Assembly: GCA_963797095.1 (NCBI GenBank)
Contig: CAWCNY010000006.1
Location: 960,001 to 1,024,000, forward strand
From: an uncultured Chloroflexia bacterium
Lineage (GTDB): Bacteria; Chloroflexota; Chloroflexia; QHBQ01; JADMIH01
Direction: 5' to 3'
DNA length: 64,000 nucleotides
The translations under genes and the position numbers were made by a program. Below, one piece after another: positions 44,986 through 53,299 of the stretch. Below the pieces are notes generated by a model that saw nothing but the letters and a program-made list of their open reading frames with translations, made no database searches and had not been told where the DNA came from. The first letter of the stretch is position 1. The number at the start of each line of letters is the position of its first letter.

Positions 44986-47427
44986 GTGTTTGAGTTTGAT
45001 ACAGCTATTTCCAGCGTTGTGGAGGTACAGGGGGAACTGCAACCACGATCTTCTGGCGAGCCAATTGAGGGACCATTGTCGGCGGAGATGCTGGATAAGA
45101 TGCAAAGGTACTGGCAGGCAGCTAACTACCTGACAGTTGGACAGATCTATTTGCAGACAAACCCTCTTTTGAGGGAGCAATTGAAGCCTGAGCATATCAA
45201 GCCACGGTTGCTGGGTCACTGGGGTACTTCGCCGGGGCTTAGCTTCATCTATGTGCATCTGAACCGGCTGATCAACGAGCATGATGCTAATGTGATCTAC
45301 CTGGCGGGGCCGGGGCACGGAGGGCCTGCGATCGTCGCCAATGTGTACCTTGAGGGAACTTATTCGCAGATATATCAGGAGGTCACTCAGGACATGTCGG
45401 GGATGCGGCGGCTTTTCCGGCAATTCTCGACACCAGGTGGAATACCGAGCCATGTGAGCGTGACCACGCCCGGATCAATTCACGAGGGGGGTGAGCTTGG
45501 GTATGTGCTGGCACACGCATTCGGGGCGGCGTTCGACAACCCCGACCTGATAGTGGCGGCTGTAGTGGGAGATGGCGAGGCAGAGACCGGACCGTTGATG
45601 GCATCGTGGAGAGGGACTAGCTTCCTCAACCCGGCACGAGATGGGGCAGTGCTCCCGATCCTGCACCTGAACGGCTACAAGATCGGCGGGCCGACGGTAC
45701 TAGGGCGCGACTCGGACGAGGATGTGCGTGCTACGATCGAGGGGAACGGATATGATGTGTATTTCGTGGAAGGCGATGAACCTGCCAGGATGCACCAGCA
45801 GTTCGCCGCCACCCTGGAGACGTGCTATGCACGCATTCGTGCTATCCAGGAGGACGCGCGGAAGAACGGTGTAAGCGGGCGGCCACGGTGGCCTGCTATT
45901 GTGCTGCGAACACCAAAGGGTTGGACCGGGCCGGCGGTGGTAGGTGGAATGCCGATTGAAGGAACGTTCCGAGCGCATCAGGTGCCGTTGAGCGACGTTC
46001 GGGGAGAGCCAAAGCAATTGGAGCAACTGGAAGAGTGGATGCGCAGCTACCAGCCTGATGATGTGTTTGATGTGAACGGGAAACTGATAGCAGAACTGGG
46101 CGCGCTTGCGCCGCGCGGGCTGAGACGGATGGGGTCCAATCCACACGCCAATGGAGGGAAACTGCTGGTAACATTGCGAGTGCCTGACTTTCGCAAATAC
46201 GCCCTGGAGGTGGCAAAACCTGCGACCGAGTGTGCCGAGTTGACGAGGCAACTGGGGAAGTTGATGCGGGACATCTATGTACAAAACGCCCAGGATGCCA
46301 ACTTCCGTCTCTTCTGCCCGGACGAAACCAACTCTAACCGCCTTGGCAACGTATTCGAGATAGAGAATCGCTGCTTCGTGGGCGAAACGATCTCGATTGA
46401 CGATCATGTATCGCCCAATGGGCGGGTGATGGAGGTACTCAGCGAGCATCTTTGCGAAGGTTGGTTGGAGGGATACTTGCTTACCGGGCGGCACGGCCTG
46501 TTCGCTACTTATGAAGCATTCTCGATGGTGTCGGCTTCGATGACGGTGCAGCATACAAAGTGGATGCAGGAGGCAATTGAGCTACCGTGGCGGGAGTTGA
46601 TCGCGTCGTTGAATATCCTGTTGACTTCGACTTGCTGGCGGAACGACCACAACGGATTCAGCCATCAAGGGCCGGGGCTGATCGATGTGATGCTGTCGAA
46701 GCGGGGCACTGTAGCGCGCATCTACCTGCCGCCTGACGCGAATTGCCTGCTGTCGGTGGCAGATCATTGCTTCAGGAGTCGCAACTATGTGAACCTGATC
46801 GTGATCGACAAGCAGCCTCAGCTTCAGTGGCTCGACATGGACTCGGCTATAGAACACTGCGAGCGCGGGGCCTCGATATGGCATTGGGCGAGCAACGACA
46901 ATGGTGAGGAGCCGGATGTGGTGCTGGCGTGCGCGGGTGATATCGTGACTATGGAGATCGTGGCGGCGGCGTGGTGGCTGCGGAAGAACATACCGGAACT
47001 GAAGGTGCGGGTGGTGAACGTTGTGGACCTGATGACGCTCTTTCCGCCTGCCTTCCACCCGCATGGTATGAACGAAACTGACTTCGTGAATATGTTCACG
47101 GCGGATAAGGATGTAATCTTCGCTTTCCACGGGTACCAGCGGGCGATACACCAGATCATACATGGGCGGGCGAACCCGGAACGCTTCCATGTTCGCGGAT
47201 TCAACGAGCAAGGGACGACCACCACACCGTTCGATATGGTGGTGCTGAACAAGACAAGCCGGTATGACCTGGTGAACGATGTGGTGAATAACGTGCCCAA
47301 GATGCGGCAGCGCAGGCCGGAGATCAATGACATCTGCGACCAGTTGCTCGCCAGGGCAAAGGCGTATTCGCTTGAGCATCTTGAAGACCCGCCGGAGATC
47401 CGCGATTGGGTATGGACCGACGATTGA
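44986..47427 (+). CDS. xfp: Xylulose-5-phosphate/fructose-6-phosphate phosphoketolase
   Basis: [38 protein letters not shown]. Confidence 0.95.
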
Positions 47428-47514: not shown

Positions 47515-49118
47515 TTAAGGGTGGGAGGGCTGGGAGAGGAGGGCCAAGCACTGGTCAAAGGGGTTGAGACCCTTAGCTCGCCAGGTGCCGAACAGGGTAG
47601 CCAACGTCATCCGGGTGGCTGATCCCTTGGGCGATTGACTACCACCCGATACCTTGCGCATCACCACCACAGGACGGATTGACCGTTCCGCCAGGTTGTT
47701 GTCAGAGGATAAGGTGGGCACTATCACGAACTGGAATAACTCCTCCTGGTGGCGCAGCAGTCTCTTGCACAAGGTGTGGCATGGGTGCTTGCTCTTTGGG
47801 GGCCGTTACCGTTCTTGCCCCCGCCCCCGCCCCCGCCCCCGCCCCCGCCCCTGCCCTGTGGCCCTTGTTTGCCCCCGCCCTGTGGCCCGAACTCCTTGGC
47901 ATCGGCATACTGCGCACCTAGCTTGGCAACCCCTTCCACCAACCGCCGGTACTCTCTTACACGCTGCTCCCACTTGTGTGGCTCTTTTGTGGCTTCGTCT
48001 GCAGTGGGAGGGCCAAGTTCGTGTTCTTCCAACAGCTTATGGGCATCATCGTACAGTGCTCGCACTCCCCTGGCCCATTCATGCACTTCCTCGTTAGTGG
48101 GGTTGGTAGGGTTGGTAGGGTTGGTAGGGTTGGTAGGGTTGGTAGGGTTGATGGGGTTGATGGGGTGCTCCTCTTTCAGCTTATGCAAATCACGGAGCAG
48201 ATGTGCCCAGCACCGCTGGTGCTCTCCTGGGAAGTCGTTGTAGCCACCGTAGAAGTCACTCGACATTACTTGACCCTTTTCCCCAAAGTTAGACCCCATT
48301 ATTCGTTTGGCTACCGCTCCCCCTCGGCTCTGGTCGTACTCGTACAATCGCTCTCCATCGGGCGTGAAGAAGCCCCAGATATAGCCGTTTTGTCCCCCTT
48401 CTCGCCAGGTGGTTTCGTCACCATGTACCACATGGCTATGGCTCCTTCGAACCCTCTTCTTTATGGAGGCAGCAGCCTCCTTCAGAGGTTCGGCTTGCAC
48501 CATTCGATGCAACAACTCCACAACCTCACCCGAAGAGATGGTCAACTTGTGTATGGTGTACAGGTACTCTTTTATGAGGAGGAGGGGCATCCTCAACGAT
48601 GTGCGCAGATGAGCTATGAGGGAGGCGATACGCACCCCCATTCTGCCTTGCCCAATCACCTGACCTGTAAGGTCGACAGTGGGGTAGTGCCACCTCCCAC
48701 AACGAGCACACCACCCCTTGAATAGCTGGTGCTCGGTGACTTGCACAGGAGGGGGTGGAGGGAGTTCTATCACCTGGCGTCTGGAGGCGAGTTGGTGCTG
48801 ACGAAGGGTGTAGCCACAATCGGGACACTGCTGCAGGTGGTGCTCAATTGTTGAGGTGGGCGATTGTTCACGGCGGCGGGCACCATTGTGCTCTTTAGCT
48901 CTGGGGCGTCTGGGAGGCTTTGGGGTGTTGTTCTTCTTGGGAGTGGAGGGCTTGACGAATGATGGGGCACCTGGCGAGCCAGAGCCAGAGGCTAGCTGTG
49001 TCTGCATCTGCTCCAACCTGGCTTCCAACTCGGCGATGCGCTCCAGAGCAAGGCGCAATTGCTCTTTGAGTTGTGCATTCTCTGCCCGCAGATGGGCTAG
49101 TTCTTCTTCCAGGTTCAT
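47515..49118 (-). pseudogene. IS66 transposase with one frameshift near 47790 and repeat expansions
   Basis: Leucine zipper, CPDCG..CARCG, HGDETTW, SDFYGGY, QRCWAHLLRD, DNNLAERSIR. Confidence 0.88.
48092..48166. repeat. 9-bp tandem repeat in the IS66 transposase (encodes NPI/NPT run)
   Basis: (gggttggta)5(gggttgatg)2. Confidence 0.9.
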
Positions 49119-49182: not shown

Positions 49183-49211
49183 TTGCCGTGCGTGGGTTGT
49201 AGTGATATAAT
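49183..49211 (+). promoter_or_regulatory. Promoter of the aconitase gene
   Basis: TTGCCG, 17-bp spacer, TATAAT with extended TG. Confidence 0.6.
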
Positions 49212-49277
49212 ATTAGTTGGAATCAAAAGAGCCCGCTCCAAAAAGAAGCGAAAGAGCCAGAAGAGGAGTTCCTTGCA

Positions 49278-52163
49278 ATGCCGCGAAATATTGTCCAGAA
49301 GATCTTCGCAGCGCACCTGGTGTCCGGCGAGATGAGGCCGGGACGCGAGGTCGCCATTCATATTGACCAGACTCTAACGCAGGATGCCACGGGTACGATG
49401 TCGTACCTGCAATTTGAGGCGATGGGCATCCCACGGGTGCGCACAGATGTATCGGTGTCATATGTTGACCACAACATGTTGCAGACCGGATTCGAGAACG
49501 CGGACGACCACCGCTTCTTGCAGTCTATCGCCTCCAAATATGGTATTTTCTTCTCGCGACCGGGTAACGGGATCTGTCACCAGGTACATCTTGAGAGGTT
49601 CGCGGTGCCTGGCAAGACCCTATTGGGATCGGATAGCCATACGCCTACCTGCGGTGGGCTGGGCATGATCGCGATTGGAGCGGGTGGTTTGGACGTGGCG
49701 GTAGCTATGGGCGGTGGGCCTTTCTATACAGCGATGCCCGAAGTTTGGTTGGTGAGGCTGATAGGCAAGCGGCAGCCGTGGGTAGCATCGAAGGACATCA
49801 TTTTCGAGTTGTTGAGAAGACTGACCGTGAAGGGCGGGGTTGGCAAGATCATTGAGTATGGTGGGCCGGGAGTGGCAGATTTGTCGGTGCCTGAGCGCGG
49901 AACGATCACCAACATGGGCGCGGAATTGGGAGCTACCACCTCGATATTTCCCTCCGATCACAGGACGAAGGAGTACATGGAGGCCCAGGGGCGAGGCAAG
50001 GATTGGACTGAATTAAAGGCTGATGATGACACCGAGTACGACGGCGTGATCGAGATCGTGCTGGATGACCTGGAGCCAATGATATCTCGCCCTCATAGCC
50101 CCGACAGTGTTGTGCCTGTGCGAGAAGTGGCAGGAACGCCGGTCACTCAGGTGCTGGTTGGCAGTTGTACGAATTCCTCGTTCGTGGATTTGCAGACTGT
50201 GGCTGGGGCGCTTAAGGGTAAGACGGTCAACCCCGGGCTTTCGTTCGGGGTGACGCCGGGGTCGCGCCAGGTGTTCACCATGATCGCGAGGTCAGGAGCG
50301 TTGGGCGACCTGATCGAGTCGGGGGCACGCATACTGGAGTCGGCCTGTGGGCCCTGTATTGGTATGGGGCAGGCTCCCGCGTCGGGAGCGGTGAGCGTAA
50401 GGTCGTTCAATCGCAACTTCGAGGGGCGGTCGGGAACGCCTAATGCACAGGTATTCCTGGCATCGCCTGAGACGTGTGCGGCGACCGCCCTGACGGGTGT
50501 GATCACCGATCCGAGGGCCCTCGGTGAAAAGATCGAGGTAGATATACCGGAGCACTTCCTGATTGAAGACAACATGATCGTGCCGCCTGCAGAGAAGCCG
50601 GACACGGTTGAGGTGCTGCGTGGACCGAACATCAAGCCGCTGCCGATCAATAAGACCCTCCCTGCCAACCTGGCCGGGCAGGTGCTACTGAAAGTGGGCG
50701 ACAACATCACGACCGATCATATCATGCCTGCGGGTGCGAAGATCCTGCCTCTGAGGTCGAACATACCGGCTATTTCCGAGTATGTGTTCGAGAAAGTTGA
50801 CCCGTCGTTCGCGACCAGGGCCAAGCAGCAAGGTGGTGGGTTCGTAGTAGGCGGTAGCAACTACGGCCAGGGCTCTAGCCGTGAGCACGCGGCGCTCGCG
50901 CCGATGTACCTGGGGGTGCGTGGCGTTATCACCAAGAGTTTTGCTCGTATCCACCGCGACAACCTGATCAACTTCGGCATAATTCCAATGACATTTGTGA
51001 ACCCTGACGACTACGACAAGATCAATGAGCGCGATGAATTGCTGGTGGAGGATGTGCGAGACGACCTGTTGGATGGCGATGAGTTCCTGACACTGATCAA
51101 CCTGAGCAAGGGACACAGCTATCAGGTGAAGCATGGACTGACGATGCGTCAGATCAACATCATACTGGCGGGCGGGCTGCTGAACTATATCAGGGAGCAT
51201 GGAGATGCGTCGAAGGTGGAGAGGGAGGCGACGGCGGCGGCTATAGGCTCGACGACGGCAATGCCTACCAGCACAACCAAGACCACTGACTCGCCTGGCG
51301 CGACACCGAGGCCGCTGTCGAGGGCTGAGATATTCGACCAGATGGTGGTGGAGAGGGCGGAAAAGGCGGTCGAAGAGCATGACAGGCTGGGACACGGATT
51401 GCACGAGAAGACAGATGCGCGCTTCGCTGAATTGATTGCTCCAAGCAAAGGGGCGATATGCCTCGATATAGCAACGGCCAGTGGCACGCTTGCACTTGCG
51501 CTCGCAGATAGGATCGGGCCGCAGGGACGCGTGGTAGCGATTGACCTGGCGCAGGGGATGCTAGACTACGCAGAGAGGAAAGCGCGTGCGCACAGGCTCA
51601 AGAACATCGAGTGGAAGCGGATGAACGCGCAGAACCTTGAGTTCGAGGATGACACGTTCGATGTGGTGGTTTGCAGTCTCGCGATCTTCTACTTCCCCGA
51701 TATTCCGGGCGCAATGCATGAGATGCTGCGGGTGCTGAAGCCGGGTGGGAAATTGGGGATCACTACAGCGGACCCGGAGACGGCGTTCTCGCCTTTGAGC
51801 CAGCCTTACATGGCGTCATTGAGGAAACTTGCGGAGGAGTTGAAGATCGACCAGCCTGCTTACTCAGATACATCGAATGAGACGCGAGAGAAGGCTGGGC
51901 TGGCGAAGCTGGTGAAGGAGGCCGGGTTCAAGGACGTGGAGGTTATCGAGGAAAGCATCCCCGTGCGGTTCACGTCGTTGGAGGATTGGTGGCAGTACGG
52001 TCGCGGGTCAACCTGGGGCGATCTGCTGCTGGACAGGTTATCACCGGACCAGAGGGTCGAATTCAGGAAGAAGCACGAGGACGAGATCAAGAAGCAGTTC
52101 GGCTCCGCAGGGATAAGGGCGGCTACGCCTATATTGTTTGCCCTGGGTAGGAAACCTGAGTAG
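49278..52163 (+). CDS. Aconitate hydratase (short ~640-aa type) fused to a class I SAM-dependent methyltransferase
   Basis: TQDATGT, GSDSHT, GSCTN, SACGPCIG, NRNFEGR, TTDHI, GQGSSREHAA, GGLLNY; then LDIATASG, AIDLA, FDVVVC, RVLKPGG. Confidence 0.9.
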   Translation: MPRNIVQKIFAAHLVSGEMRPGREVAIHIDQTLTQDATGTMSYLQFEAMGIPRVRTDVSVSYVDHNMLQTGFENADDHRFLQSIASKYGIFFSRPGNGICHQVHLERFAVPGKTLLGSDSHTPTCGGLGMIAIGAGGLDVAVAMGGGPFYTAMPEVWLVRLIGKRQPWVASKDIIFELLRRLTVKGGVGKIIEYGGPGVADLSVPERGTITNMGAELGATTSIFPSDHRTKEYMEAQGRGKDWTELKADDDTEYDGVIEIVLDDLEPMISRPHSPDSVVPVREVAGTPVTQVLVGSCTNSSFVDLQTVAGALKGKTVNPGLSFGVTPGSRQVFTMIARSGALGDLIESGARILESACGPCIGMGQAPASGAVSVRSFNRNFEGRSGTPNAQVFLASPETCAATALTGVITDPRALGEKIEVDIPEHFLIEDNMIVPPAEKPDTVEVLRGPNIKPLPINKTLPANLAGQVLLKVGDNITTDHIMPAGAKILPLRSNIPAISEYVFEKVDPSFATRAKQQGGGFVVGGSNYGQGSSREHAALAPMYLGVRGVITKSFARIHRDNLINFGIIPMTFVNPDDYDKINERDELLVEDVRDDLLDGDEFLTLINLSKGHSYQVKHGLTMRQINIILAGGLLNYIREHGDASKVEREATAAAIGSTTAMPTSTTKTTDSPGATPRPLSRAEIFDQMVVERAEKAVEEHDRLGHGLHEKTDARFAELIAPSKGAICLDIATASGTLALALADRIGPQGRVVAIDLAQGMLDYAERKARAHRLKNIEWKRMNAQNLEFEDDTFDVVVCSLAIFYFPDIPGAMHEMLRVLKPGGKLGITTADPETAFSPLSQPYMASLRKLAEELKIDQPAYSDTSNETREKAGLAKLVKEAGFKDVEVIEESIPVRFTSLEDWWQYGRGSTWGDLLLDRLSPDQRVEFRKKHEDEIKKQFGSAGIRAATPILFALGRKPE

Positions 52164-52190
52164 TGACGAGTGACGAGTGACGAGTGACGA
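52163..52190. repeat. (GTGACGA)4 heptamer array
   Basis: Starts at the aconitase-fusion stop codon. Confidence 0.9.
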
Positions 52191-52192
52191 GT

Positions 52193-52219
52193 GGGGCGGG
52201 GTTGAGACCCGCCCCTTTT
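52193..52219 (+). terminator. GC-rich hairpin terminator (REP-like)
   Basis: ggggcggg/cccgcccc followed by tttt. Confidence 0.7.
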
Positions 52220-52252
52220 CGATTCTTACCGGCTGGTGTTACTTCGTTCGGG

Positions 52253-53299
52253 CTATTGATCGTTGTTGGTCTGGCCGCCCATGAGGCCGCCGAGAAGACC
52301 GCCCAGGTCACCGAGGCCGCCCTGGGGGTTTTGCTGCGCGGAATTGGGCTGACTGCCACCCAGGAGGCCGCCGAGGAGACCACCTACCCAGTCCATTGAG
52401 CCGCCGCTCTGCTGGCCTCCGCTTTGAGATCCCATCAGGCCACCGAGCAGACCGCCAATGTCGACGTTGCCACCAGCGCCCTGTTGCTGATCGTCCAGTT
52501 GGGATTGGTTGCTGCCCATGAGGCCGCTCAGTAAGCCGCCGAGGTCCACGCTGCCACCGCTTTGTTGCTGGGATTGGGACTGAGACTGGCTACCTGTGAG
52601 ACCACCAAGGAGAGTGCCAAGGTCGCCCGCAAGACCGCCCTGGGGCTGAGTGGCGTAGTTGCTAGTATTATCGCCCTTGTTGAAGAGCATGGTGATCAGG
52701 CTGGGTGCGAGGGCTGTAATGATGCCGCCGATAACGTTGGTGGCTGAGGCCGCGCCGGGGTCGACCGTGCCCTGATTACCCGCAGTGCCCTGGGTGCCGG
52801 TGATGGCAGCCGAGAGGGATTGGAGGAGGCCGGCCTCGATCGGTTGGCCTGCCTTTTCGGCCTGGTTGAGGGCGTTGACGGCGGGGTGGATAGCATCGAG
52901 CATAGTGCCCTGGCCAGGCCTGGCCGGGTTGTTACTCTCGACGCCGCCGAGGAAAGATTGGAGGAACGGAAGAAGATTAGCGGAGGAGATAGACTGTTGT
53001 CCTTTGAAGTCGGCAGCGGCGTGTTCAAGGCCGTCGGCGTAGAAGGAGGCGGCTTTGCCTGTGCTTTGCTGGCGCATAGCCTGGGCGGCGGCCTGTAGTT
53101 GGACGCCCGCATCATTGCTGCCGGAGTTATGGGCAGCTTCAGCGGCGGCATTGAAGGCGGTGGCCATACGCTGGCCGTGTGTGCCCTTGTTGTCTACGCT
53201 GTTTAACTGATCCTGGGTTTGGGATAACTGCTGGGCGATTGAGGATAAGAGGGTTGGCACATCTACCTGACGTAGTTGGTCCATGTTTTGTCCGGCCAT
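52253..53299 (-). CDS. DAK2 (DhaL-like) domain protein with a Gly/Gln/Leu repeat tail
   Basis: ARPGQGTMLDA, VDPGAASA; repeated D(L/I)GGLLGGLMG units. Confidence 0.7.
   Translation of the reverse strand: MAGQNMDQLRQVDVPTLLSSIAQQLSQTQDQLNSVDNKGTHGQRMATAFNAAAEAAHNSGSNDAGVQLQAAAQAMRQQSTGKAASFYADGLEHAAADFKGQQSISSANLLPFLQSFLGGVESNNPARPGQGTMLDAIHPAVNALNQAEKAGQPIEAGLLQSLSAAITGTQGTAGNQGTVDPGAASATNVIGGIITALAPSLITMLFNKGDNTSNYATQPQGGLAGDLGTLLGGLTGSQSQSQSQQQSGGSVDLGGLLSGLMGSNQSQLDDQQQGAGGNVDIGGLLGGLMGSQSGGQQSGGSMDWVGGLLGGLLGGSQPNSAQQNPQGGLGDLGGLLGGLMGGQTNNDQ

Follow-up and report, generated by a model that had tools for sequence, protein, structure and literature searches.

An aconitase fused to a class I methyltransferase in one genus of Chloroflexia

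The fusion gene, its distribution and its surroundings

The DNA analysed here, a stretch of 64,000 nucleotides referred to as the window, belongs to an uncultured Chloroflexia bacterium (assembly GCA_963797095.1, contig CAWCNY010000006.1, positions 960,001 to 1,024,000). A gene on its forward strand (49278..52163) encodes an aconitase and a class I S-adenosylmethionine (SAM)-dependent methyltransferase in one open reading frame (ORF) of 961 amino acids (aa), which contains no internal stop. Residues 1–641 (49278..51200) form the aconitase module with domains 1–3 and the swivel domain 4, delimited by a hidden Markov model (HMM) match and motif conservation. The following Thr/Ala/Pro-rich tether, residues 642–681 (51201..51320), is conserved in fused proteins and predicted to be disordered, with a predicted local distance difference test (pLDDT) below 50. 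The methyltransferase domain covers residues 682–961 (51321..52160), as defined by Pfam, a structure model and fold matches. A TAG stop at 52161–52163, read from the sequence, ends the gene. A sequence-only reading of the locus had described a complete aconitase with three Fe-S cysteines, ending in GGLLNYIRE at 51197, that continues without a stop through the Thr/Ala/Pro-rich linker into a methyltransferase of about 280 aa with the motif I variant LDIATASG. All of these elements were recovered in the analysis.

The aconitase half is readily classified. Pfam identified Aconitase (4.1e-109) and Aconitase_C (9.5e-22) on the fusion. Residues 1–641 scored 989.1 bits against the aconitate hydratase equivalog model NF005558 (cut-off 612), and the module scored 945.9 bits against TIGR01342 (cut-off 719.15). 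The Fe-S cysteines are C297 (50166–50168), C357 (50346–50348) and C360 (50355–50357). An alignment of 64 aconitases, fused and unfused, shows no variation in these cysteines or in the motifs GSDSHT and GQGSSREHA, including D119-S120-H121 and S533-R535, which are presumably active-site motifs as in mitochondrial aconitase. The fold ends with GGLLNYIRE, the last base of which is 51197. Judged by its sequence, the aconitase half is an ordinary mitochondrial-type or PRK07229-type [4Fe-4S] enzyme and is predicted to be active.

The fusion is not a peculiarity of one assembly. A search of proteins of 528–1682 aa with the methyltransferase part yielded 40 clusters, nearly all of about 960 aa and with both domain sets. 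Across these roughly 40 fused metagenomic protein clusters, the methyltransferase part shares 58%–82% identity. Strong matches to the methyltransferase domain (E below 1e-90) among 301 genomes of the class were confined to the genus of the window, an uncultured genus from soil. The sequence-only reading had pointed to a stop or frameshift in the linker as the observation that would speak against the fusion; a single open frame crosses the junction of aconitase and methyltransferase in 21 of the 25 other genomes of the genus, hence in 22 of 26 with the genome of the window itself (G000). This count includes the unpublished genomes G013, G031 and G133, without which it is 18 of 22. The four genomes lacking a junction-spanning frame are no counter-examples: a contig end cuts the aconitase before the junction in G066, G078 and G145, and no aconitase was found in G148, which is 77% complete. 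A check of coverage at the junction had also been suggested. Contigs of a public soil run show 0 differences or indels over 51079–51489, although this run may be the source sample and adds little; two further runs (X2 and X3) had no match on the stretch.

Selection acts on the whole protein. The ratio of nonsynonymous to synonymous substitution rates (dN/dS), calculated from 45 pairs of 10 coding sequences (CDS) with saturated dS, was 0.05 for the aconitase, 0.19 for residues 641–700 (tether and first methyltransferase helix), 0.12 for the methyltransferase core and 0.19 for its C-terminal part. These ratios indicate purifying selection on all parts of the fusion. The fusion is real, old, of single origin, restricted to one genus and selected. 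Very probably, as far as sequence can tell, it is a truly bifunctional protein with a functional methyltransferase. Aconitase, Aconitase_C and a class I methyltransferase together represent a new domain architecture, assembled from known enzyme families. The suspicion of the sequence-only reading that it was undescribed held up, as full-text literature searches found no description of an aconitase–methyltransferase fusion.

Public annotation hides this architecture. JGI names the full fused protein ‘aconitate hydratase’, and NCBI often calls a separate methyltransferase CDS even where the frame is open. In related metagenome-assembled genomes (MAGs; P0304, P0307, P0309-P0312), the NCBI annotation has the methyltransferase part as a separate CDS of 272–287 aa with differing internal starts. 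The contig of G025 behind an NCBI call of 273 aa holds an uninterrupted frame of 987 aa through the whole aconitase. An internal start at M689 was considered as a conserved feature and rejected, as 11 of 29 fused proteins have L, K or R at this position. A JGI cluster (P0041, P0206 and P0205) consists of proteins of 315–336 aa on contigs of 21–27 kb, and two of the three share a start inside the last aconitase helix (VNIIMEGGLLN...). They could have been cut at contig edges, or they could represent a natural form in which the protein is split or frameshifted. The best identity of P0041 to the 26 genomes of the genus is 76%, and its species is not among them. On G124:C73 (L014 / L024), the fused ORF runs about 40 residues past the usual C-terminus, in an open frame of 1024 aa.

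The fusion appears to be the only aconitase that most of these bacteria have. The genome of the window (93% complete) contains only two genes of the aconitase superfamily, the fusion and a frame of 437 aa taken as LeuC. An order-wide comparison detected AcnA-type frames of about 930–970 aa in 14 of 14 genomes of the two sister families and none in the fused genus. The fusion therefore serves the entire genus as its housekeeping aconitase. In two of these genomes, a second, unfused PRK07229-type aconitase paralogue accompanies the fused one, with 54%–55% identity (G006:C18:78090-80015 and G062:C44:58286-60214, frames of 686 and 703 aa).

Upstream of the gene, a sigma-70-like promoter candidate at 49183..49211 on the forward strand combines TTGCCG, a spacer of 17 nt, TATAAT and a TG element; it is a pattern match with 10 of 12 consensus positions. 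A Shine–Dalgarno-like GAGGAG (49263–49268, forward strand) was read directly 9 nt 5' of the ATG. Downstream, a sequence pattern on the same strand resembles an intrinsic terminator (52193..52225), with a hairpin of eight G–C pairs (52193–52215) and a T-rich tail. Perfect repeats of the heptamer AGTGACG (4.6 copies, 52162–52193) begin within the TAG stop and reach the terminator hairpin. The genes on either side lie on the opposite strand, so the fusion gene appears to be monocistronic. Its neighbours in the window are a broken IS66 transposase, a phosphoketolase, a DAK2-domain protein and an aspartyl-tRNA synthetase (AspRS), and none of these four has a functional link to the fusion. The IS66-family transposase (DDE_Tnp_IS66 and zf-IS66; 47515–49118, reverse strand) lies directly upstream of the promoter region. 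It has two in-frame repeats, a 9-nt unit in 6.7 copies that encodes PTN repeats and GCCCCC in 6.7 copies that encodes a Gly run. It appears to be broken near its C-terminus, and an ORF of 85 aa (47515..47772) looks like the remainder in another frame. The phosphoketolase (XFP_N, XFP and XFP_C; 44986–47427, forward strand) is located two genes upstream, with the IS66 element between it and the fusion. The DAK2-domain protein (52253–53299, reverse strand) has a long low-complexity tail rich in Gly, Gln and Ser; a homologue adjoins the fusion gene in at least two relatives (L024 and L022).

The methyltransferase domain and the tether

The best Pfam match of the methyltransferase domain was Ubie_methyltran (3.9e-27, residues 705–888, 95.5 bits with a cut-off of 20.1). 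Methyltransf_25 (82.9 bits, cut-off 27), Methyltransf_11 (76.7 bits, cut-off 21.2) and Methyltransf_31 also scored above their cut-offs. Motif I, LDIATASG, comprises residues 729–736 (51462–51485). An exhaustive, profile-free search of 1.84 billion representatives with the domain gave 41023 matches at E ≤ 1e-3. With fragments of the fusion set aside, the best matches were free-standing methyltransferases of about 260–297 aa with 30%–39% identity, aligned over the whole domain including its C-terminal half and labelled ‘UbiE’ by JGI. About 40 paralogous UbiE-like matches are present in the genome of the window. Other databases were less informative. A sequence search of the PDB returned BH2331 and YcgJ as best matches, both uncharacterised, with E about 3e-11 and restricted to the Rossmann core. 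The matches in the ESM Atlas were generic ‘class I SAM-dependent methyltransferase’ clusters only. Other fusions within the methyltransferase family (P0077, P0102 and P0103) are MT–MT or CMD–MT proteins, with MT for methyltransferase, and provide no hint of a substrate.

The phylogenetic analysis placed the fused methyltransferase domains in one clade (11 of 11 tips, support 1.0) on a long stem (length 0.83). Conservation was read from an alignment of 11 fused and 88 free-standing domains, 99 sequences altogether, in which the two groups have the positions of the SAM site in common. D730 and D756 are invariant in all 99 sequences, and G750, D795, R818, G824 and W905 are conserved in at least 90%. 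Other residues are invariant in the fused clade and rare (≤ 10%) in the 88 free-standing relatives. They are G705-H706-G707-L708, E710, K711 and D713 in the N-terminal helices, Y805 in the loop after strand 4, A831, D832, Y844, P860, Y862, T869 and R870 in the lid after strand 5, and G908-R909-G910 and T912-W913-G914 in the lid between strands 6 and 7. In class I methyltransferases, the substrate pocket is built by these N-terminal helices, the loop after strand 4 and the two lids. The clade-specific residues thus map to four pocket-forming elements of the model. Together with a dN/dS of 0.12–0.19, these invariants are taken to mean that the enzyme is active and that its substrate site changed once the fusion had formed. 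Most probably, the domain is a working small-molecule methyltransferase with its own specificity, and its substrate is probably anionic.

A model of the methyltransferase domain was calculated with the alignment of 99 sequences (pLDDT 88.3, predicted template modelling score 0.83). It has N-terminal helices, a 7-stranded core with the strands in class I order and two helical lid insertions. The motif I loop and the acidic residue at the end of strand 2, D756, are in place. Many solved methyltransferases matched the model with Z 20–25. Closest in fold were OxaG, RoqN, GtmA and TmtA (Z 25.1–25.5, root-mean-square deviation (rmsd) 3.6–4.1, 256–265 residues). LahSB followed with Z 22.3 (rmsd 5.1, 256 residues) and HvrF with bound pantaphos with Z 21.3 (rmsd 2.8, 239 of 247 residues). 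The Tam of Agrobacterium (2p35) matched with Z 21.0 (rmsd 2.9, 236 of 240 residues), at rank 25 among many class I methyltransferases of similar Z. A juvenile-hormone acid methyltransferase was present in the Foldseek match list. The modelled fold fits a lid-bearing small-molecule methyltransferase; it does not name the substrate.

The tether has the consensus GDASxxEREATAAAHGSTTAMPTxTTKTTDxPGxKPRPLS (residues 642–681). Its mean pairwise identity in 29 fused proteins reaches 0.74, in comparison to 0.48–0.68 for the segments of the methyltransferase, and 16 of its 40 columns do not vary. No part of the methyltransferase equals the tether in conservation, and K668 of the tether is nearly invariant. 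The synonymous rate dS in residues 641–700 is not clearly depressed (median 1.37 versus 1.8 elsewhere), and hence the constraint lies on the peptide. An embedded nucleotide signal or a frameshift site was rejected as the reason for the conservation, on account of this dS and since no slippery heptamer was seen on reading the sequence. Although predicted to be disordered, the tether is more than a floppy spacer.

The arrangement of the two modules was also modelled. A complex prediction of residues 1–631 with residues 632–961 reached a score of 0.55, with 0.15 for the best control, and gives weak support for a docking of the domains. The mark applied to this score is passed by 58 of 80 solved complexes and by 2 of 110 mismatched pairs; passing scores of 0.60 or below include only 7 of the 80 solved complexes and both of the passing mismatches. 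The runs agreed in at least 44% of contacts, and the pLDDT of the partner was at least 77. The full-length AlphaFold2 model was poor, with a mean pLDDT of 56.8 and values below 50 for the aconitase part, which reflects a shallow alignment of 29 near-identical sequences. It is uninformative on domain packing.

Function of the fused methyltransferase

A link between aconitase and methyl transfer has precedents. According to PMC8871043, trans-aconitate inhibits aconitase, and methyl esterification by TMT1-type enzymes relieves this inhibition. In PMC7858074, HvrF is described as a homologue of Tam whose gene adjoins those of the aconitase-family dehydratase HvrDE, and it was proposed to handle trans-isomer side products. 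Both are precedents for the logic and not evidence on the fused protein. The methyltransferase was recruited from the widespread family of free-standing UbiE-like methyltransferases of about 275 aa. Four elements of the substrate pocket then gained their own invariants, including H706, K711, Y805, Y844, Y862, R870, R909 and W913. The fused domain would methylate a tricarboxylate that arises at aconitase or inhibits it, such as trans-aconitate or a related acid of the aconitate or citrate type. The compound would be neutralised where it is formed, by an enzyme from outside the Tam/Tmt1 family with a similar action.

That the domain methylates an anionic metabolite related to aconitase, for example trans-aconitate, is the most likely single reading, though a tentative one that is rather less than an even bet. 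Besides the conservation and the precedents, the matches of the modelled fold to carboxylate methyltransferases (HvrF, the Tam 2p35 and LahSB) and the weak docking support speak for it. Somewhat more doubtful is the specific form in which the methyltransferase, tethered to the sole aconitase, methylates trans-aconitate, cis-aconitate or a related tricarboxylate that leaves or blocks the active site, and does so independently of Tam/Tmt1 from a UbiE-like scaffold. Such a covalent fusion could serve metabolite damage control, or it could supply methyl-aconitate as the product of a dedicated pathway. The sequence-only reading had offered a tethered damage-control enzyme, a SAM-sensing regulatory domain or a pathway to a methylated tricarboxylate. 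Its basis, the fusion, turned out to be genuine and conserved, and the three roles are candidates. Damage control is kept alive by the attachment to the sole aconitase, the conserved tether, the Arg, His and Tyr residues that are peculiar to the fused clade in the pocket elements, and the distribution of a separate Tam-like gene. It is weakened by the presence of that gene in the same genome, by the missing methyltransferase neighbours of 80 unfused aconitases and by fold matches to thiol and hydroxyl methyltransferases.

The Tam-like gene requires a closer look. It is free-standing, encodes 253 aa and is located directly after mnmA (G000:C7:181121-181828; locus L036:1501-2259). Against NF002463 it scored 201 bits (cut-off 297) and against NF010703 184 bits (cut-off 320), well ahead of every other family. 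Among the 26 genomes of the fused genus, the gene was detected in 8 (4 among the 10 with a completeness of at least 90%), and in the sister families in 11 of 14. Without the unpublished G013, G031, G133 and G097, the counts become 8 of 23 and 10 of 13. The lower frequency in the fused genus would fit a partial overlap of function. In 8 genomes, including that of the window, the Tam-like gene and the fusion coexist.

Several observations weigh against an aconitate-type substrate. The genomes behind the counts of the Tam-like gene are related and incomplete, and the counts lack independence. As the genome of the window already has this gene, a Tam role of the fused domain would be partly redundant. 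The sequence-only reading had noted that the domain is more UbiE-like than Tam-like, and this was borne out: it scored 96 bits against UbiE, and the Tam model NF002463 had 18 matches at E ≤ 1e-3 in the genome, none of them at the fused locus. Tam models were not among the 25 best of 67 NCBIfam families for the methyltransferase domain, and no NCBIfam model reached its cut-off on it. Metagenomic loci with unfused relatives of the aconitase (80 loci, 59%–72% identity, 68 of them with at least 1 kb downstream) had no adjacent methyltransferase; weak methyltransferase-like ORFs occurred in two of them, more than 2 kb away. Nor did these 80 loci show a C-terminal extension, with no aconitase frame going more than 25 aa past the match. 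Without a methyltransferase beside any of them, no outside association backs a functional link. Two free-standing paralogues of the methyltransferase have uninformative neighbours (ParAB, a histidine phosphatase, a glyoxalase and an HxlR regulator). The best fold matches, with Z of 25, are thiol and hydroxyl methyltransferases of fungal natural products. The predicted placement of the clade-specific residues in the pocket is derived from their secondary-structure position and general knowledge of class I methyltransferases. Finally, the second chain in the docking prediction still included approximately 10 residues from the end of the aconitase fold, and these could return to their place by themselves and so increase the score.

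A substrate unrelated to aconitase is almost as likely as an aconitate-type substrate. The methyltransferase may act on a lipid, a xenobiotic, a thiol or a secondary metabolite, and the fusion would be a historical accident that merely co-expresses both enzymes. This account is possible, if still somewhat unlikely on its own. It would agree with relatives that form a huge free-standing family (41023 matches, 30%–39% identity) in uninformative contexts, with the natural-product methyltransferases GtmA, TmtA, OxaG and RoqN as best folds (Z 25), with 0 of 80 unfused loci having an adjacent methyltransferase and with the Tam-like gene already present. The about 40 UbiE-like paralogues in the genome would have provided a chance fusion partner. 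A mere accident is harder to reconcile with the maintenance of the fusion on the only aconitase, over a whole genus with saturated synonymous sites, and with a tether that is more conserved than the methyltransferase itself. The weak docking support (0.55 versus 0.15) also speaks for more than co-expression.

The predicted disordered, conserved tether with its nearly invariant K668 invites another explanation. The methyltransferase could act on its own protein, by methylation of the tether or the aconitase, or couple the binding of SAM or S-adenosylhomocysteine (SAH) to aconitase activity. The weak docking support would suit such a function, and peptide-modifying methyltransferases are among the matches (LahSB, Z 22.3; cypemycin N-terminal methyltransferase, E 2.1e-05). 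However, the strong conservation of lids and pocket is expected of a substrate-binding enzyme and not of a SAM sensor alone. A motif of the lysine- or N-methyltransferase type was not found after strand 4 of the fused domain, which reads SLAIFYFPD there. In addition, the close fold matches are all small-molecule methyltransferases. Self-modification or sensing is improbable, clearly more so than a small-molecule substrate of either kind.

It is very improbable that the domain is the MenG/UbiE quinone C-methyltransferase of the organism, joined to aconitase. UbiE-family models were indeed the best Pfam and NCBIfam matches, but the scores are far under the cut-offs (NF001244, 96.3 versus 216 bits; TIGR01934, 94.1 versus 158.35 bits), and a true MenG/UbiE is encoded at G000:C6:870087-870749 (220.7 bits with the cut-off of 158.35). 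An artefact, in which a lost stop, a frameshift or a chimeric assembly joined two separate genes, could appeal to the NCBI-called separate CDS of 272–287 aa in several related MAGs and to the JGI cluster of 336-aa proteins that begin within the last aconitase helix, but it has next to no probability given a junction frame open in 22 of 26 genomes with no counter-example, the uninterrupted 987-aa frame on the very G025 contig with a 273-aa call, the replaced internal Met in 11 of 29 fused proteins, the identical soil run contigs over 51079–51489 and the conserved tether peptide.

If the methyltransferase acts on an aconitase-linked acid, the fusion would unite a repair or derivatising enzyme with an enzyme of core metabolism in one protein, which is a rare arrangement. 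It would also represent a second, convergent origin of aconitate methylation. Otherwise, the fusion is a clean handle on one branch of the very large family of UbiE-like methyltransferases of about 275 aa. In either case, it raises the question of why a tether predicted to be disordered is so conserved.

Comparison with known enzymes

The aconitase half has its closest counterparts in the PRK07229 / TIGR01342-type (mitochondrial-like) aconitases of 640–644 aa, which occur in many phyla and share 69%–73% identity with residues 1–641. Unfused PRK07229-type enzymes stop a few residues past GGLLNY. The tether is missing from them and present in the fusion. The free-standing UbiE-like methyltransferases of about 275 aa have the LDVATGTG-type motif I, a WW motif and the lids in common with the fused domain. 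Unlike them, the fused clade has an insertion with P860 and Y862 and its own invariant residues in the pocket elements. An arginine present in 66% of the free-standing enzymes aligns with G914 of the fusion, which has R909 five residues earlier.

The thiol methyltransferases GtmA and TmtA, together with OxaG and RoqN, are the best structural matches and include the lids, but their sequence identity is only 18%–19%. They belong to fungal natural-product pathways, and nothing at the fusion points to their substrates. Tam and Tmt1 would share the proposed logic, the methylation of an aconitase inhibitor as described in PMC8871043, and the Tam 2p35 is one of many class I methyltransferases with a fold similar to the model of the fused domain. 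The fused methyltransferase differs by the lack of sequence-level membership in this family, and the genome has a Tam-like gene elsewhere. The pantaphos cluster with HvrF and HvrDE provides a parallel in gene organisation: according to PMC7858074, a methyltransferase for an unsaturated acid is genetically coupled to an enzyme of the aconitase superfamily, and the fold is similar. In that cluster, which is devoted to a secondary metabolite, the genes are separate and HvrF is Tam-like. Here, a UbiE-like methyltransferase is covalently fused to a housekeeping aconitase.

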